Of a stretch of 64,000 bases of DNA, positions 8,597 to 62,238 are shown one piece after another. Position 1 is the first letter of the stretch; each line of letters starts with the position of its first letter. The position numbers were made by a program, and so were the translations under genes. The notes under the pieces are model-generated. The model saw nothing but the letters and a program-made list of their open reading frames with translations. It was not told where the DNA came from and searched no databases. Origin of the DNA: an uncultured virus (IMG/VR IMGVR_UViG_3300033066_002331) (taxonomy: Duplodnaviria; Heunggongvirae; Uroviricota; Caudoviricetes); the IMG/VR virus record IMGVR_UViG_3300033066_002331. The stretch is one strand, 5' to 3'.

Positions 8597-8959
8597 TCAT
8601 TTTAATTTGTGAGCAAAAGCATAATCTTCCCCTCCATAAAAGATAAATAATTCTTCTTCAGGAGCAATATCTCTTGTGGCAACAAATTCAAGAACTTGTC
8701 TATTTTCAAATTTAGTAAAATAATAATCTACATTGGGTTCTTTAGAATGATTGAATAAAGCTCCATAACCGAGAGCCATTGCAGAATATTTTTTATTATA
8801 CATAAAAACATATGCTGCAAGAGCAGGACATTTATCAACTTCAGAATCAAGAACTTTAATAATTTCAGCACGGTGAATTATTTGTCCTTTATTAATAGAA
8901 ACTGCAGCGAACAGTCCTCTTCCCATTTTTGGGGTCATTTTTACTTTTATCATTTCCAT
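8597..8959 (-). CDS. SET-domain protein (putative lysine methyltransferase)
   Basis: GRGLFA, FNHSKEPN, DIAPEEELFIFYG. Confidence 0.85.
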   Translation of the reverse strand: MEMIKVKMTPKMGRGLFAAVSINKGQIIHRAEIIKVLDSEVDKCPALAAYVFMYNKKYSAMALGYGALFNHSKEPNVDYYFTKFENRQVLEFVATRDIAPEEELFIFYGGEDYAFAHKLK

Positions 8960-9895: not shown

Positions 9896-10609
9896 TTATT
9901 TTATTCTATTATTAAAGATTTCATAGTTATTCGCTACAGAATTTTTATCATTTATCACAGCAAATACAATATTTTTAAAACATTCTCTATAAGGAGCTAA
10001 ACTAAGATTAAATAATTCTGCAACCATATTTGGGTCATTTTTAAAAACTCCACATCCCCAAGCTCCAAGAATAATATTATCAATTTTATTTTCTCTAGCA
10101 ACTTTAAAAATAATATCCATTTTACGAAGCATTATATTTTTATATTCTAATGGATTTACAGGCTCAGGATTATCAATATGACCTGTATTTAAATTAACTG
10201 CAGCAATTGTGATAACATCACAATACACAGGAAAAACAGTTTTATAATCTTTGTCTTTAATAAATGTTACATCTTTTGAATAAATAAATTCATTAGTTGT
10301 AAGAGGATACATTTCCTTAGAAATCTCGAATAAATTAGAACATCTGAAAAGACATTCTTCTTGAGCTATAGAGCCATTCGCTACACCACCACCAGGGCGC
10401 TTAGAGCTGGCCATATTTAATGCCAATGTTTTTCCTTGAGAAGAATATTTAATGATAGAAGAAACTGTATCAGTTGGTTCCACTGTAACATTCCCATATT
10501 CATTACGTTTTAAATCTTCGAAAGTATACTTTTGACTAGTTGGAGGATTCACCTCTGAACATAATTCTTTAGTATTTTCAAATACTTGTATTAATTCTTC
10601 TTTATTCAT
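9896..10609 (-). CDS. TIGR02452/DUF2263 PARG-like macrodomain ADP-ribosyl glycohydrolase
   Basis: LNMASSKRPGGG, AQEECLFRCSNL, ILGAWGCGVFKNDP. Confidence 0.85.
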   Translation of the reverse strand: MNKEELIQVFENTKELCSEVNPPTSQKYTFEDLKRNEYGNVTVEPTDTVSSIIKYSSQGKTLALNMASSKRPGGGVANGSIAQEECLFRCSNLFEISKEMYPLTTNEFIYSKDVTFIKDKDYKTVFPVYCDVITIAAVNLNTGHIDNPEPVNPLEYKNIMLRKMDIIFKVARENKIDNIILGAWGCGVFKNDPNMVAELFNLSLAPYRECFKNIVFAVINDKNSVANNYEIFNNRIK

Positions 10610-12333: not shown

Positions 12334-13044
12334 TTAATTTTTATTATTTGTTTCAAAATAGCCTTTAGTCTCAAGTTTGCTACTAAAAAAGTTCAAAAAT
12401 AAAACAACAAACATTACTACAACTATTGTTTGAATGCTTACCCAAAATTTTCCCATTTCTGTGACTGGATAATAATCTCCATATCCAACTGTTGCTGAGG
12501 TTATAAAACTAAAATAAATAGAGTCAAACCAATGTTCAAAAGGTTTATTAAAATAATTTTCAGAGCCATAAATAACTCCAAATGATAGTACTGTCTCAAG
12601 ATAATTTATAAAAACCAAAAGCATTGACCTTCGATAAGAACGTGGTTTAGAGAAGATATCTGATGCGAATATAAGTGTTGGAACATACAAAAATGTATCA
12701 ATTATAAACCATAGCATTATACCAAATATAATACCATTATGCTGCCAACCATTTTTTAGTATTAAAACTGGAAAAATAACTTTAAAGATTACAAAAATAT
12801 CCATAGCAAATTCTTGTATAGCAATACCTCTTTTACCAAATATTTGCTTTATATAAGTACCAGGAGATGCGAATTGAAATAACGCTAATAATAATCTTAA
12901 AATTTTTTCTAAGCCTACATCATCATGATGCTCATTATTCCAAATGGACTTTACGTTACGCCATCTCTTTTGAATGGTGTTTTCAAGAGGAGTCTCATTG
13001 TCATAATTTCTTCCAAGAAATAGTTTCTTTAAAAAAGTTTTCAT
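12334..13044 (-). CDS. potassium channel family protein (Ion_trans_2)
   Basis: TM helices and selectivity filter SATVGYGD. Confidence 0.85.
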   Translation of the reverse strand: MKTFLKKLFLGRNYDNETPLENTIQKRWRNVKSIWNNEHHDDVGLEKILRLLLALFQFASPGTYIKQIFGKRGIAIQEFAMDIFVIFKVIFPVLILKNGWQHNGIIFGIMLWFIIDTFLYVPTLIFASDIFSKPRSYRRSMLLVFINYLETVLSFGVIYGSENYFNKPFEHWFDSIYFSFITSATVGYGDYYPVTEMGKFWVSIQTIVVVMFVVLFLNFFSSKLETKGYFETNNKN

Positions 13045-13523
13045 TTATCTGTAATTGAATTTAAAATCTCATGAACTTGATATAATTTTAGGCTGACCTC
13101 TAACATCTTTTCTAAAGAATCTACAACATAAACATTAGATTTTTTATTTTTTAATAAATGTGCTTTTACTAAAGCTCTAGCACGTAAACTTTCCTTAGAA
13201 GCTACAGGGTCTGAATTTTTTAACTCCTCCTTAATATCCTTATCAATCATAATCACAACAGACCTGTGTTCGTTGCTATTTATGGCTTGCATAATAGAAA
13301 ATCCTGTTTCAGCAAGACTCCCTGTACCAAAAGTTTCATTGGTTACAGGAAATAAAATAATACTATCATTAACAAGATGTTCTGCTTCTACTTCAGCTAA
13401 ATCAGGAGACCAATCCGCTACTTGAGGGTTAAAAAAGGGAATTTTTAATTCTTCATACTTCTCTATAAAAGTATTTCTCCAAGAACTTCCTCCACATGTT
13501 CCAAATAATCCTATACAATTCAT
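13041..13523 (-). CDS. nucleoside 2-deoxyribosyltransferase-like protein
   Basis: IGLFGTCGGSSWR...FFNPQV..W...SLAETG. Confidence 0.6.
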   Translation of the reverse strand: MNCIGLFGTCGGSSWRNTFIEKYEELKIPFFNPQVADWSPDLAEVEAEHLVNDSIILFPVTNETFGTGSLAETGFSIMQAINSNEHRSVVIMIDKDIKEELKNSDPVASKESLRARALVKAHLLKNKKSNVYVVDSLEKMLEVSLKLYQVHEILNSITDK

Positions 13524-22764: not shown

Positions 22765-22830
22765 TATCAATTTTCTTTACCAACTCTAAGGATTTTCCTT
22801 CATGTTTACCTGACCTAAAAATCATTTTAA

Positions 22831-23373
22831 CTATTTTTTCAACATTTTTCTAAAAACTGTTGCTCTTCTTGCTTGTTCTTCAACTGCTTTATCTGCCCAT
22901 TTCTTTTTCATATCAAAAGAACTTGTTGGTATAAAAGCACCTGATTTAGGAGCTCCTGAATCTTCCAATTTAATTGCCCATAGAGCAGATGCAATACTCA
23001 TCATATTTCCATAGCCAATTTTATCCCCAAGTGTTTTAACAAGTTCTACTTCTATTTTATGAGAAGCTTCCCATTCTTTTAAAATAGCTGGTTTTTGATT
23101 TTCTTTAAATTCTTCACACAAGGTTTTATTTTTCATAATTAAATCTTCTTTTTGTTTCTTACTTAATTGTTTTATTCTATACTCTTCTTTTGCCGCTTCT
23201 GATTTATTTGTTTTTGTTAAACTCATCATTAATTTTACAGGACCTCTTCCTCTAGTATATTTTGCACCTATACCAGAATTATGAGCTTCAATACGTTTTT
23301 TTAAATTATTGGTAATTCCTGTATAAAAGCTATTGTCAGAGCATTTGACAATGTAAACATACCAAATATCCAT
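22831..23373 (-). CDS. GIY-YIG nuclease with C-terminal extension
   Basis: WYVYIVKCSDNSFYTGITNNLKKRIEAHNSGIGAKYTRGRGP. Confidence 0.85.
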   Translation of the reverse strand: MDIWYVYIVKCSDNSFYTGITNNLKKRIEAHNSGIGAKYTRGRGPVKLMMSLTKTNKSEAAKEEYRIKQLSKKQKEDLIMKNKTLCEEFKENQKPAILKEWEASHKIEVELVKTLGDKIGYGNMMSIASALWAIKLEDSGAPKSGAFIPTSSFDMKKKWADKAVEEQARRATVFRKMLKK

Positions 23374-29692: not shown

Positions 29693-30109
29693 TCATAAAT
29701 TTAATTTTTGAACATGAGGTTTACAAATATCAACAACTTTCTTACACATATCAACATCAAACCAGCCGATATGAGTTTCTTTAACATTTATTCCTAATTC
29801 ACCAGATAACCACTTATAGGCTTTACCTCGTGCCTTACCTTTTTTCATTCCAAGCTCTTGTTTTCTTTGCCAAAGTTTATCAAAATAAAAATGAGCAGTT
29901 TGTTTCCATTTTCTTAATTCAGAATTTGCCAATCTACCCAACGCAACTGTTGTTTCTTTATGAACACCAACCCAAGCGCTGCAAGGCCTACAAAGATAAA
30001 TCATACCAAAACTTTCTTTGTAAACAGCTTTGCTATCTACAAATTCAGTTTCAGATTTACAATAAGGGCATTGTTTCCCAAGAATAATTAAATCGCCTTT
30101 TCTACTCAT
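29693..30109 (-). CDS. DUF3268-like zinc-finger phage protein
   Basis: CPYC, YLCRPCSAWVGVH, LGRLAN, HIGWFD. Confidence 0.8.
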   Translation of the reverse strand: MSRKGDLIILGKQCPYCKSETEFVDSKAVYKESFGMIYLCRPCSAWVGVHKETTVALGRLANSELRKWKQTAHFYFDKLWQRKQELGMKKGKARGKAYKWLSGELGINVKETHIGWFDVDMCKKVVDICKPHVQKLNL

Positions 30110-36873: not shown

Positions 36874-37866
36874 TTATCTAAAATAAGAGTTTATAAAACT
36901 ACACAATTCTTTTGTAGTATGAACTACAGGAATTTTATATTTCATAGCCTTATAGGCCATATAATTCATTTTAGGAGCATCTTCAGGAAACCCAAGAACC
37001 AATTTACCACTCTTCATCCATTCTCCAAATTCTATATTAGTTGTAAATGCGGGCATTAATTTTAAATCTCTTGGAACCCAAAATACAATCAAATCAGCAG
37101 CATTCAACCCCTTATCTTCCCACTCTACTTGTTTGTCGTAATCAAAGTTTTCATTAAATTCTTTATTCTCAGGATTTATAATTGTACCCCTAAATCCACT
37201 GTCAAATAATTCTTTCATAAAGTCTGGTCTCCAAGAAACTCCTTCTTTATCTCTCGGAGAAGGACCTGCTATAAATATTGTATTTCCTACCTTAGTAATT
37301 TTATCTCCAGTATATAAAACTCTTTGAGGCATATTTGCACTTAACTCTCCAGCAAATACATTTACATCATAAAATTTTCTAATTGCATTCATGCAAAATA
37401 AAATCTGAGCTTCAGAAATTGGAGTAAAATGCCAAGCGTCACAACTAACATTTATCATATTTCGTTGAACCTTCCATAAACCATGAATATGCCCTACAAT
37501 AGAAAACACTTCCTTATCTGCCTTCTCTGGATAGTGATTCAAATAAACAGTTTCACCATTAGACATTGTAAGATACATTCCATCTTGAATGGTATCAAAA
37601 AGCTCTTCAAGTAAATCTTGATTTCTTGGCACATCATAATTTCCAGTAATTAAATGTTTTCTACCATTTAATTTTTTTATGCACTCTAAGCCTTCATCTG
37701 AAGTAGCTGCATCTCCAACTAAATAAACATCATCATCAATACCAACAACAGAATTCCATTTTTCAATTAATGTATTATCTTGTTCAGAAACAGTTTTAAA
37801 TGGTCTATAAAAAAGGTCAAAGCGGTTGTCTGAAAAATGTTGGTCAGATGTAAAAAATTTAGCCAT
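36874..37866 (-). CDS. calcineurin-like metallophosphoesterase fused to a nucleoside 2-deoxyribosyltransferase-like domain
   Basis: TSDQHF, LVGD, GNYD, HYP, GHIH; C-terminal IFIAGP...SWR...QVEWE...TTNIEFG. Confidence 0.8.
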   Translation of the reverse strand: MAKFFTSDQHFSDNRFDLFYRPFKTVSEQDNTLIEKWNSVVGIDDDVYLVGDAATSDEGLECIKKLNGRKHLITGNYDVPRNQDLLEELFDTIQDGMYLTMSNGETVYLNHYPEKADKEVFSIVGHIHGLWKVQRNMINVSCDAWHFTPISEAQILFCMNAIRKFYDVNVFAGELSANMPQRVLYTGDKITKVGNTIFIAGPSPRDKEGVSWRPDFMKELFDSGFRGTIINPENKEFNENFDYDKQVEWEDKGLNAADLIVFWVPRDLKLMPAFTTNIEFGEWMKSGKLVLGFPEDAPKMNYMAYKAMKYKIPVVHTTKELCSFINSYFR

Positions 37867-37947: not shown

Positions 37948-38736
37948 ATGAAGATAAAAAAATGTGATTTAAGTGCTCTATTGGAAGATAATTATTTATC
38001 TTATTATTGGATTGGTTTTATACTTGCTGATGGTAGTATATCTAAAAAAAATGAATTAAAAATTTCTGTTAGTTTAAAAGATGAAAACCATCTAAAAAAA
38101 TTACAAGAATTTTTAAAGATAAAAGAAATACATTATTTAAAAACCACTAATGGTTACAACTATGTATCTATTCATGGTTTAGACACAGAAGTAATGAAAG
38201 AATTTTGTAAAAAATTTAGTACAGGTAATAATAAAACATATAATCCAGCAAATATTAATTGGATTACAGATGAAAAATTAATGCTTTCTCTTATTGCTGG
38301 ATTTATAGACGGAGATGGGTGTATAGATAATCAATTTGGAAGACCAGACTTTAAACTAAGAATTAAGTGTCATAATAGTTGGCTTCCAGTTTTAGTAGAA
38401 TTTATTAAGTTCATTTATATGAACGAAGCTTTTGAGCCTGTTCAACCTAAAGTTAATAAATCTGGATATGCAGAACTCACAGTTACGAACACAGTAATAC
38501 TTAAAAATTTAAAGAAAAAAATATTAAATTTAAAATTACCTATTATGAATAGAAAGTGGGAAATTATAGACTTGAATTATATTAGTAGAAATGAAAATGC
38601 AGAATATATAAAAAAACAAGTTATACAATTACTATTAGATGGTAAAAAAAATAAACAAATTTGTCAGATTCTTAATGTCCATAAATCAACAGTTAGTATT
38701 ATTAAAAAAAATTATCTATCTTCCAAAAATTTATAA
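37948..38736 (+). CDS. LAGLIDADG homing endonuclease with C-terminal HTH
   Basis: YWIGFILADGS and LIAGFIDGDGC. Confidence 0.85.
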   Translation: MKIKKCDLSALLEDNYLSYYWIGFILADGSISKKNELKISVSLKDENHLKKLQEFLKIKEIHYLKTTNGYNYVSIHGLDTEVMKEFCKKFSTGNNKTYNPANINWITDEKLMLSLIAGFIDGDGCIDNQFGRPDFKLRIKCHNSWLPVLVEFIKFIYMNEAFEPVQPKVNKSGYAELTVTNTVILKNLKKKILNLKLPIMNRKWEIIDLNYISRNENAEYIKKQVIQLLLDGKKNKQICQILNVHKSTVSIIKKNYLSSKNL

Positions 38737-38774
38737 TAAACAAAAAAGCCAACAATATTTTGCTGGCCTTTTTA

Positions 38775-39512
38775 TTATTCTTCCAATTTAGGAAATTTGA
38801 GGTCTAATTCAAGGAGTGCTTCTGCGACTCTCTTGGCAATTAAATATTCTTTGTACCAATTTTTGTCAGCAGGAACTATTTCCCAAGGAACCTCATTACA
38901 ATTTTTAAATATATCTTGATACGCTTTTCTGTATTGAGGCCATTGCTTTGCAGTTTCTTTATCTCCTGGATTATGTTTCCATTGTTTAGTTGGGTCTTCT
39001 AAGCGTTCTTGTAATCTTCTTGATTGTTCTTCTTCTGAAATATGTAAATAGAATTTAAGTACCACTGTTCCATTATCTTCTAATAATTTCTCAAAATTAT
39101 TTATATGTTGAAAACGTTTTTTAGTAGTTTTTTTGTCAATCCATTTATTAACAGTTGGCACTAAAACATCTTCATAGTGTGAGCGATTAAAAATTTTTAT
39201 AATTCCTTTTTGTGGAACTTCTCTATGTATTCTCCATAAGAAATCATGAGCCAATTCAAGTTCTGTTGGCTTCTTGAAACTTGATATTGAAATACCTTGT
39301 GGATTTACAAAGCTAAATACTGCTTTTGTAGCACCATCTTTACCAGAACCATCTAATCCTTGTAAAACGATTAAGATGCTGTATTTATTTTGAGCATATA
39401 AGATATTTTGACGTTCTCTAATAATATCAATATACTTCTTTGTTTTTTCTTTAATTTCTTCTTTCTTTAAATAAGAATGAGGCTTTGTGGAATATTCTGA
39501 TAGTCTTTTCAT
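38775..39512 (-). CDS. ppk2: polyphosphate kinase 2 family
   Basis: QGLDGSGKDG, SFKKPT, HDFLWR, FNRSHYEDVL. Confidence 0.92.
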   Translation of the reverse strand: MKRLSEYSTKPHSYLKKEEIKEKTKKYIDIIRERQNILYAQNKYSILIVLQGLDGSGKDGATKAVFSFVNPQGISISSFKKPTELELAHDFLWRIHREVPQKGIIKIFNRSHYEDVLVPTVNKWIDKKTTKKRFQHINNFEKLLEDNGTVVLKFYLHISEEEQSRRLQERLEDPTKQWKHNPGDKETAKQWPQYRKAYQDIFKNCNEVPWEIVPADKNWYKEYLIAKRVAEALLELDLKFPKLEE

Positions 39513-43032: not shown

Positions 43033-43530
43033 CTACTCATAATCACCTCTCCTTATATTTCGTTCAATATCTTTTTGCTTAATAGACTCTCTTTTATCCC
43101 ATTCTTTTTTACCCTTAGCCAATTGAAGCAATACTTTAATTAATCCTTTTTTGTTAAAGATTTTTTCTACAATTATTGTATAACCTTTTTGTGAAATTGC
43201 AACTCCAATCTCATCTATTTCTTCTTTCTTTAATAATAATTTTCTGTCTCTAATTGGGTCATGCTGAACTGCTGCATCTTTAAATTCTGCAATATGCATA
43301 CCTTTTACAAATATTTCTCCATTGTTAATATAACAATAAGAATCAGCAATTGTTGCCTTACCATCTCTAATTGATTTTACTTCAGAGCCTAAAAGCTTAA
43401 TACCTGCAATAAATTCTTTTTCAAAAGCAAAATCATGAGAAGCTTTTCTATTTAAGATAGAAACAGGAGTTGCCTTTTTTTTAGGAATTTCTTGAGTTTG
43501 TTCGGTTGTATGTGTTTTATTTTTTGACAT
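43033..43530 (-). CDS. smpB: SsrA-binding protein SmpB
   Basis: NRKASHDF, AGIKLLGSEVKSIR, RKLLLKKEEI, AKGKKEWDKRESIK. Confidence 0.95.
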   Translation of the reverse strand: MSKNKTHTTEQTQEIPKKKATPVSILNRKASHDFAFEKEFIAGIKLLGSEVKSIRDGKATIADSYCYINNGEIFVKGMHIAEFKDAAVQHDPIRDRKLLLKKEEIDEIGVAISQKGYTIIVEKIFNKKGLIKVLLQLAKGKKEWDKRESIKQKDIERNIRRGDYE

Positions 43531-43569: not shown

Positions 43570-44334
43570 TTATTGCTTTTCATCTTCTTTTTTATTCTCT
43601 TTTTCTTGATGTAGTTCTATTGGGAGTTTATAATCATCGCTTAACAGTAAATCTACTACTTGTTTTACTCCAATTGTTGATGGTTCTGCTATTGTAGTTA
43701 TAAAATCTTTACGAGCAAGAGTTCCAAATAATGCAGGATTTTTATCAATATAAAAAATTGGAGTAAATGTTTTTGAATGTCTATATAAACCTGCTGCTGG
43801 ATATACCTGCATTGAAGTACCTATAATAATCAATATATCTGCTTCTCTACAAAAATCTTCAGCATCATTTAATAAAGGTATAGATTCTCCAAACCATACA
43901 ATGTTTGGTCTCATCTGAAAGCCTTCATCGCATAAATCTCCAAGAACTATATCATTATATCCTATATCTTTTATTGTAGAATCATTTCCTGAAGATTTTG
44001 ATTCAGTAAGTTTACCATGAAAATGTAAAACATTTTCAGAGCCAGCTCTTTCATGTAAATCATCAATATTCTGTGTTATAATTTGCACATCATATTTTTC
44101 ATTTAATCTTAAAAGTTCTGTATGTCCAGAATTAGGCTCTACTGTAGCTAACTGTCTCCTTCTTTGATTATAGAATTCCAAAACTAAAGAAGGGTCTTTA
44201 AGCCATCCTTTTGGGCTTGCGACATCTTCCACTTTATGATTTTCCCATAGGCCATTAGAATCTCTAAATGTATTTATTCCACTTTCAGCACTCATTCCTG
44301 CACCTGATAAAACTACTATTTTTTTCTTTTCCAT
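43570..44334 (-). CDS. cobB: Sir2/CobB NAD-dependent deacylase
   Basis: GAGMSAESGI.TFR, TQNIDDLHERAG, RPNIVWFGE, GTSMQVYPAA. Confidence 0.92.
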   Translation of the reverse strand: MEKKKIVVLSGAGMSAESGINTFRDSNGLWENHKVEDVASPKGWLKDPSLVLEFYNQRRRQLATVEPNSGHTELLRLNEKYDVQIITQNIDDLHERAGSENVLHFHGKLTESKSSGNDSTIKDIGYNDIVLGDLCDEGFQMRPNIVWFGESIPLLNDAEDFCREADILIIIGTSMQVYPAAGLYRHSKTFTPIFYIDKNPALFGTLARKDFITTIAEPSTIGVKQVVDLLLSDDYKLPIELHQEKENKKEDEKQ

Positions 44335-47688: not shown

Positions 47689-47787
47689 AATTTTAATTTA
47701 TAAAGCGAAAATATAAAAAAGTTTTTGATTAAACAATTTTTTTTAGAACTAATTTTTGTTATATTTGTACTGACAAAAAAATACTTG

Positions 47788-50700
47788 ATGAATAACAACG
47801 AAAACAAACCAAAAACCAAAATTGTTGGTATATTAACACGAATTATATTTAAAAATGAAGACAATGGATATCACGTTTTAAGTGTTGATATACCTAATCT
47901 GGAAGATACAAAAATCACTCTTTTACAACCCAATCTATATGAAGGAGTTACATATGAATTTCATGGTGAATGGACTGTAAACCCTAAGTTTGGTAATCAA
48001 TTTAAAGCAGAAAGAGCTTTCGAGGTTCAACCTTCATCTAAAGAGGGTTTAAGAGCATATTTACAGTCAAGTTTTTTCCCAGGAATTGGGCCTGTGATTG
48101 CTAATAGGATTGTTCAACACTTTGGAGAAAATGTAATTGATATTATTAATAGTAATCCTGATAAATTATTGCAAGTTAATGGCGTATCTAAATCAAAATT
48201 AGTAGCTATAAAGGCAGCTTGGGAAGAAAATAAGGAAATAAATGAAATAATGATGTTCCTTCAACAATATGGCATTAGTAGCTTATATGCCACAAAAATT
48301 TATGAAAAGTATAAAAAAAATTGTATTACTCAAGTATTAAATAATCCTTATAAATTAGCAAATGATATATCAGGTATAGGATTTGTATTTGCGGATAAAA
48401 TAGCACTTCAGATTGGGTTTTCAGCTGATAGCAATGAAAGAGTAAAGGCTTGTATTTCTTATGTGCTTGAGCAAGGAATTTTGGATGGTCATTGTTTTCT
48501 TTATTATAATCAAATAAAAACTCGTTGTGCAGAATTATTGCAAGTAGATATTGCTGAAAAAATAAGTTCTTTATTACAAACTTTAGAAAATAATAAAGAA
48601 ATAAAATCTTGGAACTTACCTAAGGAAGAAAAAAGATATTATTCAAGAAAACTTTTTTACAATGAAACTTATTGTGCAGAGAAAGTTAATGCTCTTAAAG
48701 AAATAGATTATAAGCTAAAAATTGATGAGTCTTTATTACACTCAAAAAATGATTCAATTCAATTAAGCCAAGAACAATTATTAGCAGTTAAAGGAGTTTT
48801 AGGTCATGGAATTTCAATATTAACTGGAGGGCCAGGATGCGGGAAATGTTTAAAAAAAGGCACTCTTGTATTAATGTATGATGGGTCAAAAAAGAAAGTA
48901 GAAGATATTTTAGTAGGAGACTTATTAATGGGAGACGATTCTAAACCTCGCAAGGTTCTAAGTTTAGCTCGTGGAAAAGAAAAAATGTATGATGTTATAT
49001 CTAATGATGGAAAAGAATGGGGTTGTAATGAATCTCATATTCTATCATTAAAATATAACGATAAGAGTAGAAATATTATTATTAATAATTTAAAGTATAG
49101 TTATGGAGATATAATAGATATTTCTGTTAAGGATTACTTGTCTTTAAGTAAGCGAAAAAAACATCATTTAAAGCAATATTCTACTTCTATTGATTATATT
49201 TCTAAAGATTTATCAATCCCTCCTTATTTATTAGGTTTATGGCTTGGAGATGGAGCTTCTGATAATTCAAGAATTACTAATACAGATAAAGAAATTTTTG
49301 AATATGGAGAAAGTATCGCTGAAAGTCTAGGTTTAAAATATAATAAAAATCTACCAAAAAATAGATGCGAAAATTTCAATTTATCTGGCAAACGAGGACA
49401 TGCATTCTCTACCCTATTAAGAGAACATAATTTAATAAAAAATAAACATATACCAAATATATATAAAATAAATTCTATTGAAAATAGACTTGAATTATTA
49501 GCAGGGCTATTAGATTCTGATGGACATTATAGAAGTGGCAATTTTGAAATTACATTGGTAAATGAAAGCTTATCACATGAAATTTATGATTTAGCATTAA
49601 GTCTTGGCTTTAGAGTTAGCATTAATAATAAAAAAGCGACTCTAAATAGAAAAGATGGTTCTAAATATACCACTAAGGCATATAGAGTAATTATTGGAGG
49701 TTTTTTAAACATAATACCTACAAAAGTTTTAAGAAAAAAAGCAAATAATACTCCTAACAAAAATCCAATGCATAGTGGTTTTAAGCTAATAGACAAAGGG
49801 TTTGGAGATTACTATGGGTTTGAGATTGATGGAAATCATAGATTTGTTTTAGGCAACTATGTTGTTACACACAATACTACTACAACTAAAAAAATAGTTA
49901 ATATGTTACTTGACATTGGAAAAAAAATAGTTCTAGCTGCTCCAACAGGAAGAGCGTCACAAAGAATGACAGAAGTCATAGGAGTTGAAGCATCTACAAT
50001 ACATCGTCTTTTATCCTGGGACCCTGTAAATGGAGGCTTTTTAAAAAATGAAATGAATACAATCGAAGCTGATTTTATTATCATTGATGAATCTTCAATG
50101 ATTGATATAAATCTTGCATATGCTTTATTGGCAGCAACAGCATATAATACACAAATTTTATTTATTGGAGATGCAGACCAACTTGAACCTGTTGGACCTG
50201 GTTCTTTTTTTAAAGACCTTATATCAAGTGGTGTAATTCCTGTTTATAGATTGAATGTTATTTTCAGACAAGGTAAAGAATCAATGATTATAAAATATGC
50301 CCATGAAATAAATAAAGGAATAGTTCCAAATATTGATTCTCCATTGATTAATCCTACTATTTGGTCAGATGGTACAGACTGCTCTTTTATTGATTCTGGA
50401 TTTCCTGAAGGAAATAAAGATAGGAGAGACTATCCTTCTTGGTCATCTCTTAGATATGGATTTGAAGTTACACAAATGATTGTAAAATTATATACTGAAA
50501 TAATGCCAAAATATATAGGTAATGAAAAAGAAATACAAATTTTAATTCCTATGAATGTTGGAGACATGGGTTCTATTAGAATAAATTCTATTATTCAAAA
50601 TTCTGTTAATCCTCAACAAACTGGTAAATCTGAAATAAAACTTAAAGAAAAATTATTTAGAACAAACGATAAAGTAATTCAAATAAAAAATAATTATGAT

Positions 50701-51084
50701 TTAGGAGTATTTAATGGTGATATTGGCAAAATAATAGATATTGATGAACCTAATATGAAGTTGATAGTTAGATTTTCTGAGAATAGAGAAGTCGTATATA
50801 CTAAAACAGATATTTTTGAATTAGACCTTGCATATGCCATATCTATTCATAAAAGTCAAGGTTCTGAATTTGATTGTGTTATTCTACCAATAATGATGCA
50901 ACATTATAGAATGCTTGAAAGAAGTATAATCTATACAGGCTTAACTCGTGCTAAAAAATATGCTGTTTTTATAGGACAAAGACAATCACTAGAAATAGCA
51001 GTAGAAACAAAAGAAACTAAAATCAGACAAACATCATTAAAATATATGCTACATGATGCTGAATTTGCAAACCCAATGATATAA
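47788..51084 (+). CDS. recD2: RecD2/TraA-like SF1B helicase containing an intein
   Basis: GIGPV HhH, NPYKL, TGGPGCGK|intein|TTT, APTGRA, IIDESSM, AYAISIHKSQGSEF; start probably ATG 47788. Confidence 0.92.
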   Translation: MNNNENKPKTKIVGILTRIIFKNEDNGYHVLSVDIPNLEDTKITLLQPNLYEGVTYEFHGEWTVNPKFGNQFKAERAFEVQPSSKEGLRAYLQSSFFPGIGPVIANRIVQHFGENVIDIINSNPDKLLQVNGVSKSKLVAIKAAWEENKEINEIMMFLQQYGISSLYATKIYEKYKKNCITQVLNNPYKLANDISGIGFVFADKIALQIGFSADSNERVKACISYVLEQGILDGHCFLYYNQIKTRCAELLQVDIAEKISSLLQTLENNKEIKSWNLPKEEKRYYSRKLFYNETYCAEKVNALKEIDYKLKIDESLLHSKNDSIQLSQEQLLAVKGVLGHGISILTGGPGCGKCLKKGTLVLMYDGSKKKVEDILVGDLLMGDDSKPRKVLSLARGKEKMYDVISNDGKEWGCNESHILSLKYNDKSRNIIINNLKYSYGDIIDISVKDYLSLSKRKKHHLKQYSTSIDYISKDLSIPPYLLGLWLGDGASDNSRITNTDKEIFEYGESIAESLGLKYNKNLPKNRCENFNLSGKRGHAFSTLLREHNLIKNKHIPNIYKINSIENRLELLAGLLDSDGHYRSGNFEITLVNESLSHEIYDLALSLGFRVSINNKKATLNRKDGSKYTTKAYRVIIGGFLNIIPTKVLRKKANNTPNKNPMHSGFKLIDKGFGDYYGFEIDGNHRFVLGNYVVTHNTTTTKKIVNMLLDIGKKIVLAAPTGRASQRMTEVIGVEASTIHRLLSWDPVNGGFLKNEMNTIEADFIIIDESSMIDINLAYALLAATAYNTQILFIGDADQLEPVGPGSFFKDLISSGVIPVYRLNVIFRQGKESMIIKYAHEINKGIVPNIDSPLINPTIWSDGTDCSFIDSGFPEGNKDRRDYPSWSSLRYGFEVTQMIVKLYTEIMPKYIGNEKEIQILIPMNVGDMGSIRINSIIQNSVNPQQTGKSEIKLKEKLFRTNDKVIQIKNNYDLGVFNGDIGKIIDIDEPNMKLIVRFSENREVVYTKTDIFELDLAYAISIHKSQGSEFDCVILPIMMQHYRMLERSIIYTGLTRAKKYAVFIGQRQSLEIAVETKETKIRQTSLKYMLHDAEFANPMI
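48847..49875 (+). mobile_element. intein with LAGLIDADG endonuclease (343 aa)
   Basis: Starts CLKKGT, ends VVTHN before Thr; LLGLWLGDG and LAGLLDSDG. Confidence 0.92.
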
Positions 51085-52510: not shown

Positions 52511-54451
52511 CTATCCATTTTTAATAATTATTTTTAAATCTATTTGTCTTTTAGTTAAATTAACTCCTTCTACATAAACCGTTACTGTATCTCCAAGTGA
52601 AATTTGTTTTCCTGTATCAGAAATAAATTTATGATTTTTTTCATCAAGAGTAAAACCTTGACTTAAAATGTTTTCATTATTACACAAACCTTCACATCCA
52701 TTTTCTTTTATTTCTACAAACAAACCAAATTTACTTACACCTGAAACAACTCCTTCAAATTCTTGGTTTAATTTATTTTGCATAAATTCTACCTGTTTAA
52801 AACGAATTGAATCTCTTTCTGCCTTAGATGCTTTATTTTCCATAGTAGAACAATGTTCACATTGTGTTTGTAATAATGGAGCGGATAAAGTTTTATACTT
52901 TAATAGTTTAAATAATAATCTATGTAAAATAACATCTGGATAACGTCTTATAGGAGAAGTAAAGTGGCTATAATATTTAAACCCAAGACCATAATGTCCT
53001 AAAATTTGAGTTGTATAAATAGCTTTTGCCATTGACCTTACAGCAACTGTTTCTATAATATTTGAATAATTTGTTCCTTTAACTTCAGACAATAACTTAT
53101 TCATATTATTTTTGTTCTCTTCTTCATTATCAGACACATTGAAATCAAAGCCAAATTGTTTCACAAAAGCAGATAATTCTTGTAATCTTTCGAGTGTTGG
53201 AAGAGCATGTGTACGATAAATACAAGGATAACCCTGTTTACCTATAAAAGCAGCTACTGATTGATTAGCCAGCAACATAAATTCTTCAATTAATTTATTT
53301 GAATCTTTAGATTCTTTAAAATAAACACCAATAGGCTGTTTATCCTCATCTAATCTAAATCTAACTTCTTTTTTATCAAAAGATATAGCTCCATTATCAA
53401 AACGAATTTTACGAAATGCCTTAGCCATTTTATCCATAACAAGAACCGCTTCATCAAATGCATCAGAAACTTTAGAAACACCTTCAATAACTTCTTGTGC
53501 TTCTTCGTATGAATATCTCTTACCCGAACGAATTATTACTTTAGCATATCTTTCTTCTAAGATTTGAATTGGTTCTTTTTCTGAAAATTTTATTTTAAAA
53601 ATAGCAGAGAAAGCTAATTTGTCTTCATTTGGTCTAAGAGAACAAACTCCATTAGAAAGTCTCTCAGGAAGCATAGGAATAACTCTATCAACTAAATAAA
53701 TTGAAGTTGCTCTCTTATAAGCTTCTTTATCTAACTCTGAACCTGGAGTAACATAATGGCCAACATCAGCTATATGAACGCCTACTTCATAAGTATCTTC
53801 TTCTTCTAATTTTTTGAATGATAATGCATCATCAAAATCTTTTGCATCCTTTGGGTCAATTGTAAAAGTAATAGTATTTCTAAAATCTTCTCTTTTCTTA
53901 ATTTCAGATTCTGGGATTTCAAATTCTATTGCATCAGATTCGTTTGTTACCCTTACTGTAAAAGTAGAATCAATTTCATTTTCAAATAATATTGATTGAA
54001 TTTCTGCTGTATGTTCTCCAGCCTTACCAAAGATTTGTTTAACAATTCCAACAGGACTTGAAAAACCATCATTCCATCTTGAAATTTTAACTGATACTTT
54101 ATCTCCTGGTACTGCTTCTCCAAGATTTTCTTTTGGCAAGAAGAAGTCAATCGAAAATTTCTTAGAAGTAGTTTTTACAATACAATTTTCTGAATTACCT
54201 AATTGTTCAACAATTCCTACAAATTCTGTTTTAAATCTTTTCTTAATTCCAATTACTTGTCCTTCGTAATTCTTTTTATCTTCGTTAAATATAAGTTTAA
54301 CAAATACCGAATCTCCATTTAGTGCTTTTCCAGTTTTATTTTTTGGAATAAAAATATCTTGATTAATCCCCTTGCTTTCGGAAATTAAAAACGCATCACC
54401 CTTTCTCGTAAATTCTATCGTCCCTGATGAATTTTTTTTAATTCTTGTCAT
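52511..54451 (-). CDS. rnr: ribonuclease R
   Basis: TIDPKDAKDFDDA, VHIADV, IEEFMLLAN, HFTSPIRRYPD, C-terminal S1. Confidence 0.93.
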   Translation of the reverse strand: MTRIKKNSSGTIEFTRKGDAFLISESKGINQDIFIPKNKTGKALNGDSVFVKLIFNEDKKNYEGQVIGIKKRFKTEFVGIVEQLGNSENCIVKTTSKKFSIDFFLPKENLGEAVPGDKVSVKISRWNDGFSSPVGIVKQIFGKAGEHTAEIQSILFENEIDSTFTVRVTNESDAIEFEIPESEIKKREDFRNTITFTIDPKDAKDFDDALSFKKLEEEDTYEVGVHIADVGHYVTPGSELDKEAYKRATSIYLVDRVIPMLPERLSNGVCSLRPNEDKLAFSAIFKIKFSEKEPIQILEERYAKVIIRSGKRYSYEEAQEVIEGVSKVSDAFDEAVLVMDKMAKAFRKIRFDNGAISFDKKEVRFRLDEDKQPIGVYFKESKDSNKLIEEFMLLANQSVAAFIGKQGYPCIYRTHALPTLERLQELSAFVKQFGFDFNVSDNEEENKNNMNKLLSEVKGTNYSNIIETVAVRSMAKAIYTTQILGHYGLGFKYYSHFTSPIRRYPDVILHRLLFKLLKYKTLSAPLLQTQCEHCSTMENKASKAERDSIRFKQVEFMQNKLNQEFEGVVSGVSKFGLFVEIKENGCEGLCNNENILSQGFTLDEKNHKFISDTGKQISLGDTVTVYVEGVNLTKRQIDLKIIIKNG

Positions 54452-59986: not shown

Positions 59987-60035
59987 GTTCTTTTTATTTT
60001 TATACTCTTATACGTTGTTTTTTAAAAAAGGTTTA

Positions 60036-60545
60036 TCAAAGTAATAAAAAAAGTAAAAGAAGTCCACCAGCAGCAAAACCTAAGCGTAAAATATTTTCTG
60101 GATTTGAAAGCCATATCTTAACATGGTCATGTTCCTTAAGAAGTTCTATCAATTCTTTTTCCCACTCTTTTTTTTCAATCCATATACATTTAGTATTCGG
60201 TAAAAATTTTTCAATTAATTCTTTTTCTTGTATATCATCATCAATATGAATTATAGAATTAATTTTACCTAGAGTTTTATATTTCCATTCTCTATTTGTA
60301 AAAATAACCTTATCTTCTTCAATACCTAACTCTTTTGCAAGTTTAAGTACTTCAACATGTTCATTAGTAATACCTTGTCCTGAATACCCAGGCCCAAATC
60401 TTCTAGTAACAAAATAAACTTCATAACCACGTCTTAAAAGACGCATTACCCAATCTCGTATTATTTTTTTTTGTACATTTAAACTACCATCAAAGTGGTC
60501 TCCTATACAGCCATCGTAATCAAACGTTATAATTGAACTTATCAT
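60036..60545 (-). CDS. HAD-superfamily hydrolase with C-terminal TM anchor
   Basis: ITFDYDGCI, FVTRR, IHIDDD. Confidence 0.7.
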   Translation of the reverse strand: MISSIITFDYDGCIGDHFDGSLNVQKKIIRDWVMRLLRRGYEVYFVTRRFGPGYSGQGITNEHVEVLKLAKELGIEEDKVIFTNREWKYKTLGKINSIIHIDDDIQEKELIEKFLPNTKCIWIEKKEWEKELIELLKEHDHVKIWLSNPENILRLGFAAGGLLLLFLLL

Positions 60546-61212
60546 AAATTTTATATTTTCTATTTAACCTAATTTTATTTGTTGAATTTTCGTATAATAA
60601 ATTTAAAATTTTTTTTGTATCTCCAAAATAATGGGTTCTACATACATTCATAGCTTCGCTTGTTATATATATTGGATGTTTAGATATTTTAAATTTTTCT
60701 TCTAAAAAAGTTTGCAAAGAAATAAGTATTTCTTTAGTTGCAGTAAAACTCATTCTTAAATTTTTATTTTCTATACTTAAACTACCATCACCATCAAAAA
60801 GACCTCTTAAAAAAGACAAATAAAACTTTTCTTTTATTTTAGGAAATTCACATATATAACTTTTTTTATTTGTTATTCCTAAATTTATTAGATAAGACGT
60901 AAATTCTTTAGAATTAATCTGAATCATATATCTTATGTATGTTTTTTTTGTTCTTTTATCAAATTGACTTATTTTTGTTATTGGATGACTTGACTTTATT
61001 GATTTTTTAAATTTTACAATTAAATCTTTATCTTTAGATGATAAAGCTGTTTTATATCCGTCTTTTTGTATAGTACCATCTGATATTATAACTCCTAACC
61101 AATATGCCTTATCATATGAATTAATATTTTTAAAATATTCTAAATCTATATTATGACATTTAATTTGATTTCGTTTAAATGATTTACTTGAATTTATATT
61201 AATATTATTACG

Positions 61213-61848
61213 TTAGCACCAATACTACGGAAGTGCTTTGATATTAATTATCATATCTTTATTTTTTACAGCAAAAACAAATTCACCGACATATCCAGCA
61301 TCCTCACCAAAAATAGCATCACAACTATTTAATTCTACCAAAAAATTATTTGCTATTTCTTCACCCAACGCTTGTTGAAATAGTTTTATTTCTTCATTAT
61401 AATTAGAAGTAATTGCCATATCTCCAATAATGAATAATCCTTGCTGTTTATTAAATCTGTTTCCGTTTTTACCTGTTTTTTCTGTGTAAATCTTATTCCA
61501 TCTATCTAATTTTAAAATATTATAATTAGAAGTATCTAATGTAATTTTATAGCAATTATCGCCAAAATGTTTAGCATAATCAAAATTAACCGCTAAGTAA
61601 TCAAAACCACTTTTATTTTTATCATAAGTTCCATCAACACACTTATAAACTGTTGTTTTGCCGAAGTTTTTTACTTTTTCTATCATTTCTCTTATTTCCA
61701 TATCTATCTTTAGTTAAAAATAGTTCAAAATTAAAATTCATACAAAATAAACCGTACTGGTGCTAACAGCGTATATAAGAAATGGCACAGAAACATTCGT
61801 ACTTAATTTAAACATTCTACAAGTGCCACTTCTCATATACGCAAAACG
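61213..61848. mobile_element. attC-like (integron-type) gene cassette, 636 bp
   Basis: Left junction ACG|TTAGCACCAAT; right end TGGTGCTAAC-palindrome-GCAAAACG|; circularisation restores TGGTGCTAAC...GTTAGCACCA. Confidence 0.8.
61225..61701 (-). CDS. cassette-borne hypothetical protein (weak ADP-ribosyltransferase-like pattern)
   Basis: Single ORF filling the cassette; stop codon 12 nt from the junction. Confidence 0.6.
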   Translation of the reverse strand: MEIREMIEKVKNFGKTTVYKCVDGTYDKNKSGFDYLAVNFDYAKHFGDNCYKITLDTSNYNILKLDRWNKIYTEKTGKNGNRFNKQQGLFIIGDMAITSNYNEEIKLFQQALGEEIANNFLVELNSCDAIFGEDAGYVGEFVFAVKNKDMIINIKALP

Positions 61849-62238
61849 AACTAATAATCTTCTAATTGTTAAAGGTGCTGATTTATTTTCTTTTGCAATC
61901 TTATTAATAGATTTACCAGAAACATATTCTTGTATTATTTGTTTTTCATTTAAATCTTTCATACTTTTTTATTATAAATACAATAAAAAAAACAAAAGTT
62001 ATTACTTTTAAATCAATTGTTATAACATTAAATGACATTATTTATCATTTTAACATTCTTTGAGTTCCACAATTTTTACAAAAAGCGACTTTACTATTTT
62101 CATCTTCTTCTTTTTGTAAACCCATATTATCATTATAAAAGTTCCATACATGAGAAGTTAATTCACATTCATGTTTCTTTGCTTTAAATTGATTAGTAAA
62201 TTCTTTACCGTCATCCGTGATGTATGTTATAATTGTTT

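Follow-up and report, generated by a model that had tools for sequence, protein, structure and literature searches.

Closest described systems

Integrons are gene-capture platforms of bacteria that work with one special integrase; the same logic is found here in phages, with a simpler Xer-like enzyme and with inverted cassettes. The DNA analysed, called the window below, is the whole 64,000-nucleotide stretch of an uncultured virus of the Caudoviricetes (IMG/VR record IMGVR_UViG_3300033066_002331). The element in question is a 636-bp insert within it, which splits the gene of a LAGLIDADG homing endonuclease. This insert is probably a single gene cassette of an integron-like system of large phages, placed at a secondary site.

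Several mobile DNAs depend on Xer-type recombinases. For example, the CTX phage integrates as a folded single strand at dif, and the dif modules on Acinetobacter plasmids move as discrete units. These systems resemble the present one in the type of recombinase, in their folded single-stranded or short inverted sites, and in the movement of discrete units. However, they use the host XerCD at the chromosomal dif or at a 28-bp pdif; whereas here the enzyme is phage-encoded and the sites are rows of hairpins of about 100 nt.

The likeness to integrons is closer. In both systems one-ORF (open reading frame) cassettes stand in rows, the sites are imperfect AAC...GTT palindromes with a G↓TT crossover (arrows mark crossovers and junctions), and insertion at secondary sites occurs. 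The last box has its distal part in the next cassette, and only the circular form would have fully complementary ends. The better-folding strand is the equivalent of the attC bottom strand, and the recombinase gene lies at the end of the array beside a distinct, putative docking junction. The elements have the R''-L''-loop-L'-R' layout of attC; the wider RYYY/RRRY consensus is kept only in part. The rule that a cassette's own ends complete a site, with the distal R' lying in the next cassette, holds across 187 cassettes, and in the window the two ends pair at 9 of 10 positions.

The differences concern the enzyme and the orientation. The phage recombinase, of about 267 aa, is Xer-like and without the IntI insertion, and would not be classed as an integron integrase. 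The cassette ORFs are inverted, and the recombinase gene lies downstream of the cassette genes and is co-oriented with them, whereas intI is divergent; the arrays do not have the integron arrangement in this respect. Moreover, the hairpin of the phage system is strongly conserved in sequence, with few subtypes, and the system is carried by phages.

Sites of the attC type have been described in phages. According to the available text of Qi et al. (2023; PMC9892861), virulent phages, including the Polaribacter phage P12002L, contain integrase-free clusters of attC sites (CALINs), and IntI1 recombines some of these sites. The likeness lies in attC-type sites between small genes of virulent phages, among them a phage of a Flavobacteriia host, and in cargo such as DNA methyltransferases; many arrays of the present family likewise have no recombinase. 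However, the available text mentions neither a phage-borne Xer-like recombinase nor inverted cassettes, pairing of cognate ends or a gene as the place of insertion, and the word 'Xer' has 0 occurrences in its main text. A CALIN has at least two attC sites close together and no integrase; the 64-kb window, with one site, is not one, and related records such as G007 fit the definition (at least 10 elements and no PF00589 match in G007).

In P12002L itself, model R1 of the present hairpin gave weak matches (E ~1e-3) between the minus-strand genes gp53-gp56, at 38022-39258. These matches lie between a Mom-like gene, a DNA methyltransferase gene and small ORFs, and their site-to-gene orientation is that of the family. 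The published P12002L_attC1 (near 30056) was rejected as a family member, being a different and shorter hairpin, and so was the published attC2, which shows no resemblance. A structure finder run on P12002L with relaxed settings returned mostly noise.

The promoter-stem-loop cassettes (PeSLs), mobile regulatory elements of T4-type phages (Arbiol et al., 2010; PMC2839356), are a further comparable system. In the available text, they are repeated stem-loops between small accessory genes of large virulent phages; units the size of a gene come and go there, with small circles as their proposed vehicles. PeSLs are described as promoter-terminator units exchanged by homology; whereas the present family shows a fixed crossover, cassette-specific complementary ends and a tyrosine recombinase dedicated to it, and its leaders are not enriched in a promoter motif, which places it outside the PeSL definition. 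A full-text literature search found no paper on a phage-borne Xer-like recombinase with such arrays, on the inverted cassettes or on an insertion into a gene.

Insertion into the endonuclease gene

The split gene and the insert have the following parts.

61849..61962 (read 61962 to 61849), minus strand: 5' part of the endonuclease gene, 38 codons; translation with weak helix-turn-helix (HTH)-like matches (HTH_7, E 0.032, below the cut-off)
60520..61212 (read 61212 to 60520), minus strand: 3' part of the endonuclease gene, 230 codons plus stop, with both LAGLIDADG motifs; matched by LAGLIDADG_3, phrog_4645 and a homologue in LR756501
61213..61848, minus strand: inserted cassette, 636 bp; its limits are the ends of nucleotide homology to the copy in contig L138 and equal the stretch skipped by the empty-site contig
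61225..61701, minus strand: cargo ORF P0003, 158 aa, the sole ORF of the insert (translation); tentatively of the ADP-ribosyltransferase fold
61769..61842, minus strand: conserved hairpin, equivalent to L''/L'; 20-nt arms (61769-61788 / 61823-61842) that are 90% complementary, and a 34-nt loop
61750..61767, plus strand: R''-like box CCGTAC-TGGTGCTAAC, adjoining the hairpin; pairs with the other cassette end at 9 of 10 positions beyond TAAC/GTTA
61213..61231, plus strand: TTAGCACCAATACTACGG, the distal portion of the R'-like box, which lies at the opposite end of the inserted cassette; in other copies it directly follows hairpin-AAAACG (e.g. copy 1 of L025)
61846..61848, no strand: ACG of the right junction; with the left ACG, the 3-nt stretch that holds the crossover, its three letters fitting either side
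61210..61212, no strand: ACG of the left junction; target copy or cassette copy, the two being indistinguishable

Excision of 61213-61848 joins the two endonuclease pieces in frame as a gene of 268 codons. The 3' piece matches Pfam LAGLIDADG_3 (E 1.2e-11) and the endonuclease family phrog_4645 (E 1.2e-40, profile positions 84-303 of 308). An intact homologue of 266 aa was found in the 735-kb phage record LR756501; residues 22-225 of the 3' piece (P0002) align with its residues 56-263 at 44% identity (E 3e-49). The 38-aa N-terminal piece, too short alone, gave no BLASTP alignment with this homologue, and its placement by MAFFT was poor. In the window phage and in LR756501 alike, the gene downstream of the endonuclease is small and has a D.DGC motif close to its start. 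Among the viral contigs, tblastn confirmed no relatives of the endonuclease.

On the gene-sense (minus) strand the cassette reads CGTTTT, hairpin, T, GTTAGCACCA box, leader, ORF and TGGTGCTAA box. A 14-nt inverted repeat (61212-61225 / 61754-61767, 93% complementary) links the left end of the insert to the stretch just before the hairpin. When cassette and target are compared on the sense strand (...GCTAA↓CGT↓TTTGCG and ...TTAGTT↓CGT↓AATAAT), the crossover falls within CGT. The hairpin scores 106.7 bits with model R1, and this model and pattern searches found only one family element in the window. Three further window hairpins (near 22828, 34150 and 44640), with borderline scores from the structure finder, were unsupported by model R1 and were rejected as chance.

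For the empty allele, Logan contigs of four public runs from four studies were placed on 60400-62400. A contig of run X1 (443 nt, 0 mismatches, flanks of 87 and 356 bases) joins 61209 to 61846 and skips exactly 636 bases; the run is listed as DNA, its kind being a guess. The initial annotation had proposed that deletion of the insert, with ACG at both junctions, restores a 268-aa LAGLIDADG ORF, and had set the search for an empty allele as a check beforehand. The reading frames and the X1 contig bear out both points. The filled form is also present in the contigs. Run X19, which may be the source sample of the window phage and whose contigs reach 199,652 bases, has contigs over 60400-61789 and 61819-62400, and both filled junctions are bridged there (the left in record 8, the right in record 15). 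In run X3, from another study, record 19 bridges the left filled junction (61192-61342), which is thus spanned without mismatch in two studies.

The depth of the hairpin in the metagenome contigs is about 20 times that of its flanks, which indicates a repeat common to many other genomes in the samples. Such a high-copy repeat, within which contigs break, could give rise to an assembly chimera, the possibility by which the initial annotation would have been overturned. However, the junctions bridged in X19 and X3 and an empty form exact to the base reduce the chance of a chimera almost to nothing; the insertion is confirmed as precise. A 37-nt word across the left junction had 0 matches in metagenome contigs of the Joint Genome Institute (JGI). 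The window offers what the arrays do not: a natural insertion outside a docking site together with its recorded empty allele, in which the crossover is fixed within 3 nt and the whole cassette moves as a unit.

The exact in-frame deletion would also be expected if the insert were removed from the RNA, as an intron or a similar spliced element, leaving the endonuclease gene not really broken. Long-range pairing encloses the ORF, and intron ORFs are often looped out in this way. However, no Rfam intron model matched 60000-62500 at E up to 10; the matches were chance ones to hairpin-shaped models (the best was the mir-154 microRNA model, with 32 bits against a cut-off of 52). None of the 4 junction registers combines a 5' exon ending in U with an insert ending in G, as the group I rules require; the family members sit between genes and not inside them; and the run with the empty form is listed as DNA. 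Splicing is accordingly considered very improbable.

Two side observations concern this site. The empty allele has its insertion point within a perfect 7-bp inverted repeat with a 5-nt spacer, ATTATTA-CGAAC-TAATAAT (61204-61210 / 61852-61858), which may be chance in AT-rich DNA or a feature that attracted the recombinase. Moreover, run X1 contains a back-joint from 61845 to 61211, where hairpin-AAA and one extra C are followed by CGTTAGCACC..., one base off the expected circle junction. A variant cassette in circular or tandem form may account for it, or else an array where the P0003 cassette follows a like hairpin.

Hairpin family and circular permutation

The hairpin was found by blastn at 79% identity in the huge-phage record LR745206, between small co-oriented genes; searches with three subtypes by blastn found it in no other GenBank phage record. 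A pattern of shared words of the hairpin matched at least 123 viral-contig stretches in IMG/VR. The alignment set of 128 matches, including the window and L001, was reduced to 108 copies after 7 with more than 3 arm mismatches, 10 duplicates and 3 judged unrelated by eye (L040, L056 and L079) had been dropped. The consensus hairpin has 15 pairs, of which 8 show compensatory changes in the family alignment. TAAC is present in all 108 aligned copies, its AAC being fixed by the search pattern. On the strand reading TAAC...GTT, hairpin-AAA(A/C) is followed by CGTT in 104 copies; the exceptions are the window, L011, L106 and L113.

The right junction of the window insert reads AAAACG↓AACTAAT and the left one ACG↓TTAGCACCAATACTACGG. 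The cassette sides of the two are contiguous in L025, where the hairpin is directly followed by AAAACGTTAGCACCAATACTACG, that is, the right end of the window insert joined to its left end. The insert is thus the usual unit, opened at AAAACG↓TTA (G↓TT) and circularly permuted, in foreign DNA. The G↓TT crossover proposed from the window sequence maps to ACG↓TT by the junctions, the empty allele and the limits of homology, and the palindrome family, whose absence with differing cargo would have counted against the initial annotation, was found with many cargos.

A structure finder (TAAC, a stem of 12 positions of which at least 11 pair, GTT) returned 328 elements in the loci, compared with 13 in shuffled loci. 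In a pattern scan of the genome collection, 83 of the 121 loci obtained had neither hairpin nor CGTT and were discarded as chance matches. A hairpin transposon of the IS200/IS605 type, which has an HUH (Y1) transposase gene and subterminal hairpins at both ends, was rejected as an identity for the insert; the cargo has no Pfam match and an ADP-ribosyltransferase-like fold, there is one hairpin only, and the cargos vary among copies.

Some variants of the family were also observed. The element at L011:2487-2600 is followed by CG↓AGCACCAATACTAC, the usual cassette start minus the two Ts of GTT, which may be a scar at the crossover. Tiny units made up of paired boxes alone (GTTAGCAAA...TTTGCTAAC and GTTATGGCA...TGCCATAAC), with no ORF and no large hairpin, resemble empty cassettes; they lie in L138 at about 1320-1350 and, in L130, in the region upstream of the recombinase start. 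A further subtype, with the conserved left flank GGAATACATCAGCT before AACAGCGTATATCTGGTTACGGC, is present in loci of the genome_contigs collection (e.g. L146, L150, L175, L179, L195 and L257). This subtype comes from bins labelled Saccharibacteria, Gammaproteobacteria, Patescibacteria and others, and the phage subtypes from Flavobacteri- and Bacteroid- bins; such labels are weak host evidence. The hosts of the large phages with the cassette system are probably Bacteroidota.

Cassette ends, orientation and strand bias

Pairing between cassette ends was counted over the 10 positions beyond GTTA/TAAC in 187 distinct cassettes bounded by two elements. The two ends of the same cassette (cognate ends) form 6.90 pairs of 10 on average, with a mode of 9; whereas the two sides of one hairpin, which belong to neighbouring cassettes, form 3.31 and random end pairs 3.35. 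Nine pairs were reached by only 9 of 3717 random pairs (Mann-Whitney p 2e-67). In the window the lone mismatch between the ends is A.C on the top strand, that is, G.T on the other. Cognate-end pairing is the integron signature. Such a pattern results when recombination takes place at one fixed point within the last box. The initial annotation had described the insert as a cassette whose ends, once joined in the circular form, resemble attC boxes, and the TAAC/GTTA boxes and the pairing of the ends agree with this. For recombination at a fixed point, the circular form would be the natural intermediate.

The longest ORF runs opposite to the TAAC-to-GTT direction of the site in 172 of the 187 cassettes. 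The orientation of the window ORF, called atypical in the initial annotation, is in fact the rule in this family. As a consequence the gene comes after the hairpin, and the recombinase gene points the same way as the cassette genes. The leaders, with a median length of 36 nt, are short and are not enriched in TAnnTTTG, the Bacteroidota-type -7 promoter motif (12 of 178 leaders, compared with 7.6 expected).

The stems are biased between strands. Among the 108 elements, the wobble positions comprise 211 A.C cells on the top strand, corresponding to G.T on the gene-sense strand, and 5 of the reverse kind; hairpin position 14 is a wobble in 106 copies. As DNA, the site of the circular junction folds at -29.3 kcal/mol on the bottom (gene-sense) strand and at -22.2 kcal/mol on the top strand; shuffles of the bottom strand fold at -7.3 +/- 2.3 kcal/mol.

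These features bear on a different explanation, in which the hairpins are regulatory RNAs or terminators similar to the T4-type PeSLs, the genes move by homologous recombination between the repeated hairpins, and the window insertion is an illegitimate by-product. The hairpins do lie between co-oriented genes and on the transcribed strand, which the wobbles favour. Their copy number in the metagenome contigs is high, and mini-circles are documented for PeSLs in the available text of PMC2839356. However, with homologous exchange one would not expect pairing to switch sharply at TAAC/GTTA from cognate to non-cognate, nor an insertion at a place with a 3-nt match and with both cassette ends at the canonical point, nor a dedicated recombinase at the array end. 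The lack of enrichment of the -7 motif in the leaders also speaks against it. This explanation is regarded as unlikely.

Linked Xer-like recombinase

In the first set of element-bearing records, all five contain a PF00589 match, with six genes in total. The six recombinases are similar to each other, with 266-298 aa, and are nearest to the XerA, XerC and XerD models, all below the cut-off. With the integron-integrase model TIGR02249 (NCBIfam) they score 135-171 bits, in two stretches only, against a cut-off of 265. When compared with IntI4 (2a3v), the query residues 173-209 (37 aa) stand opposite the skipped chain residues 175-259 (85 aa); the IntI-specific insertion, in the I2 helix region, is thus missing. 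In the available text of PMC7790495, the innovation of single-strand recombination is credited to this IntI-specific helix. The present system makes it testable whether recombination of single-stranded hairpins needs that helix.

The gene and the array are physically linked. Elements matched by R1 lie 144-620 nt from the 5' end of the recombinase gene in four of the six loci and 769 nt from it in L126; at the L130 locus no R1 element was found at E up to 1. Their polarity is the same throughout, pointing away from the gene. In L133, a 362-kb record, the recombinase gene starts 45 nt past the end of a cassette with a P0003 homologue. A junction TAAC↓TAT.ATATAT (TAAC↓TATNATATAT, TAAC↓TATAATATAT) stands upstream of the recombinase start codon in five of seven loci; it is similar in L131 (TAAC↓AAGTATATAT) and different in L126. 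This conserved junction at the array end is a candidate docking (attI-like) site.

The initial annotation had seen no integrase in the window and had called for a search for a linked tyrosine recombinase; the first holds, and the second is present in other phages that carry the family. Its view of an integron-like system that delivers genes into phage genomes is supported; however, the enzyme is a Xer-like protein, shorter than an integron integrase and distinct from it.

The cassettes could also be true integron cassettes, with the host's bacterial IntI having inserted the one in the window and the phage merely carrying attC sites, as CALINs do. In the available text of PMC9892861, IntI1 recombined five of six attC sites taken from virulent phages, among them one of a Polaribacter phage. 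The AAC/GTT core and the G↓TT crossover match those of integrons, no recombinase is present in the window, and four of the ten element-bearing records are without a tyrosine recombinase. However, the ORFs are inverted compared with those of integron cassettes, the conserved junction that closes the arrays is followed directly by a phage-borne Xer-like gene, and no IntI-type enzyme was seen beside any array. A role of the host IntI therefore seems rather improbable.

Proposed recombination and its weak points

The preferred reading, a cassette of an integron-like phage system at a secondary site, might work as follows. In the usual setting the cassettes stand in rows, each with a conserved imperfect hairpin that TAAC and GTTA boxes flank, followed by a short leader and a single small ORF. 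A cassette would be cut out as a circle, and the union of its complementary ends there would make the recombination site whole. The recombinase would then exchange strands at ...AAAACG↓TTA... (TAA↓CGT on the gene-sense strand), and the better-folding gene-sense strand would serve as the equivalent of the attC bottom strand. In the case of the window, the circle would have recombined with an unrelated place in the LAGLIDADG gene, and not with the docking site, splitting the gene cleanly.

Several observations weigh against this reading. The target resembles the cassette site in only 3 nt (CGT). For the strand swap, a tyrosine recombinase needs the exchanged strand to match over a short stretch just 3' of the cut, and the 3-nt match would be what such a swap needs here. 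No circular form of the cassette was seen in the contigs of the four runs, the X1 back-joint being ambiguous. The hybrid sites within arrays share TAAC/GTTA only, which looks thin for excision. A recombinase without the insertion that IntI uses on folded attC is not assured to use single strands. Moreover, the arrays are often without an enzyme: the recombinase is present in one of the five records of the second set and in six of ten overall, and PF00589 had no match in the other four of the second set, two of which are rated 100% complete. No tyrosine recombinase was found in the window by Pfam among the 53 ORFs scanned, or by tblastn with two family recombinases (best E 0.37). The single-strand step would rest on the cognate-end pairing and on the wobble bias; both lie on the transcribed strand and could serve an RNA. 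The wobble bias and the folding are consistent with an attC-like preference for the bottom strand; an RNA role would fit them equally well, the same strand being transcribed.

A broader proposal is that phages carry an integron analogue of their own, in which a plain Xer-like recombinase acts on folded gene-sense strands and cassettes are delivered to any place that shares about 3 nt, as an ancestral or convergent form of integron. This is plausible but judged somewhat less probable than its opposite. If true, it would be a general device for the delivery of accessory genes, including ADP-ribosyltransferase-like ones, anywhere in phage genomes. The system bears on the spread of accessory and probable anti-defence genes among large environmental phages.

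Cargo of the cassette

P0003 has a conserved E133 in a GEDAG motif. It matches no Pfam or PHROG family, and its 22 homologues at 55-100% identity are all without a name; as a lone query against the viral contigs it gave one weak locus. In L138, a 12-kb metagenome contig, the cassette is present within an array at 90% aa identity. The nucleotide homology between the window and L138 starts at CG(T/G)TTTG and stops at GCTAACGT, which are the limits of the cassette. Homologues of P0003 at 79-80% identity also form cassettes in L133 (a phage rated complete) and in L134 (93 kb, at least 10 elements); the 3' end of these cassettes is kept (GTAGTATTGGTGCTAAC), and the hairpins and neighbours differ. 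More distant homologues (47-64% identity; L135, L137 and L139-L143) are ordinary genes without an element. At least two of them (L135 and L143) are followed by what look like terminator hairpins.

The AlphaFold model of P0003 has a pLDDT (predicted local distance difference test) of 90.3, and its top structural matches are nearly all of the ADP-ribosyltransferase (ART) fold. They include the catalytic domain of diphtheria toxin (Z 6.7), NatT (Z 6.3), RES (Z 6.2), ParT (Z 6.0) and the anti-CRISPR protein 6kyf (Foldseek E 1.8e-3). The ART-type matches range overall from Z 5 to 6.7, all below Z 8; the fold is therefore offered as a tentative lead and not as an assignment.

Other genes of the window

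The window also encodes the following proteins related to nicotinamide adenine dinucleotide (NAD) or ADP-ribose.

9896-10609, minus strand: PARG-like glycohydrolase
43570-44334, minus strand: Sir2
13041-13523, minus strand: nucleoside deoxyribosyltransferase-like
36874-37866, minus strand: nucleoside deoxyribosyltransferase-like

Together with the ART-fold cargo, these genes suggest that the phage might be invested in NAD/ADP-ribose chemistry.

The window is rich in selfish nucleases.

47725-51084, plus strand: RecD2-type helicase gene split by an intein (Hint and LAGLIDADG domains amid the helicase domains)
37948-38736, plus strand: second LAGLIDADG endonuclease, with a C-terminal HTH
22831-23373, minus strand: GIY-YIG endonuclease

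Four further genes were recognized.

43033-43530, minus strand: SmpB
52511-54451, minus strand: RNase R/II-type exoribonuclease
38775-39512, minus strand: polyphosphate kinase 2
8597-8959, minus strand: SET-domain protein

This gene set is typical of very large phages.

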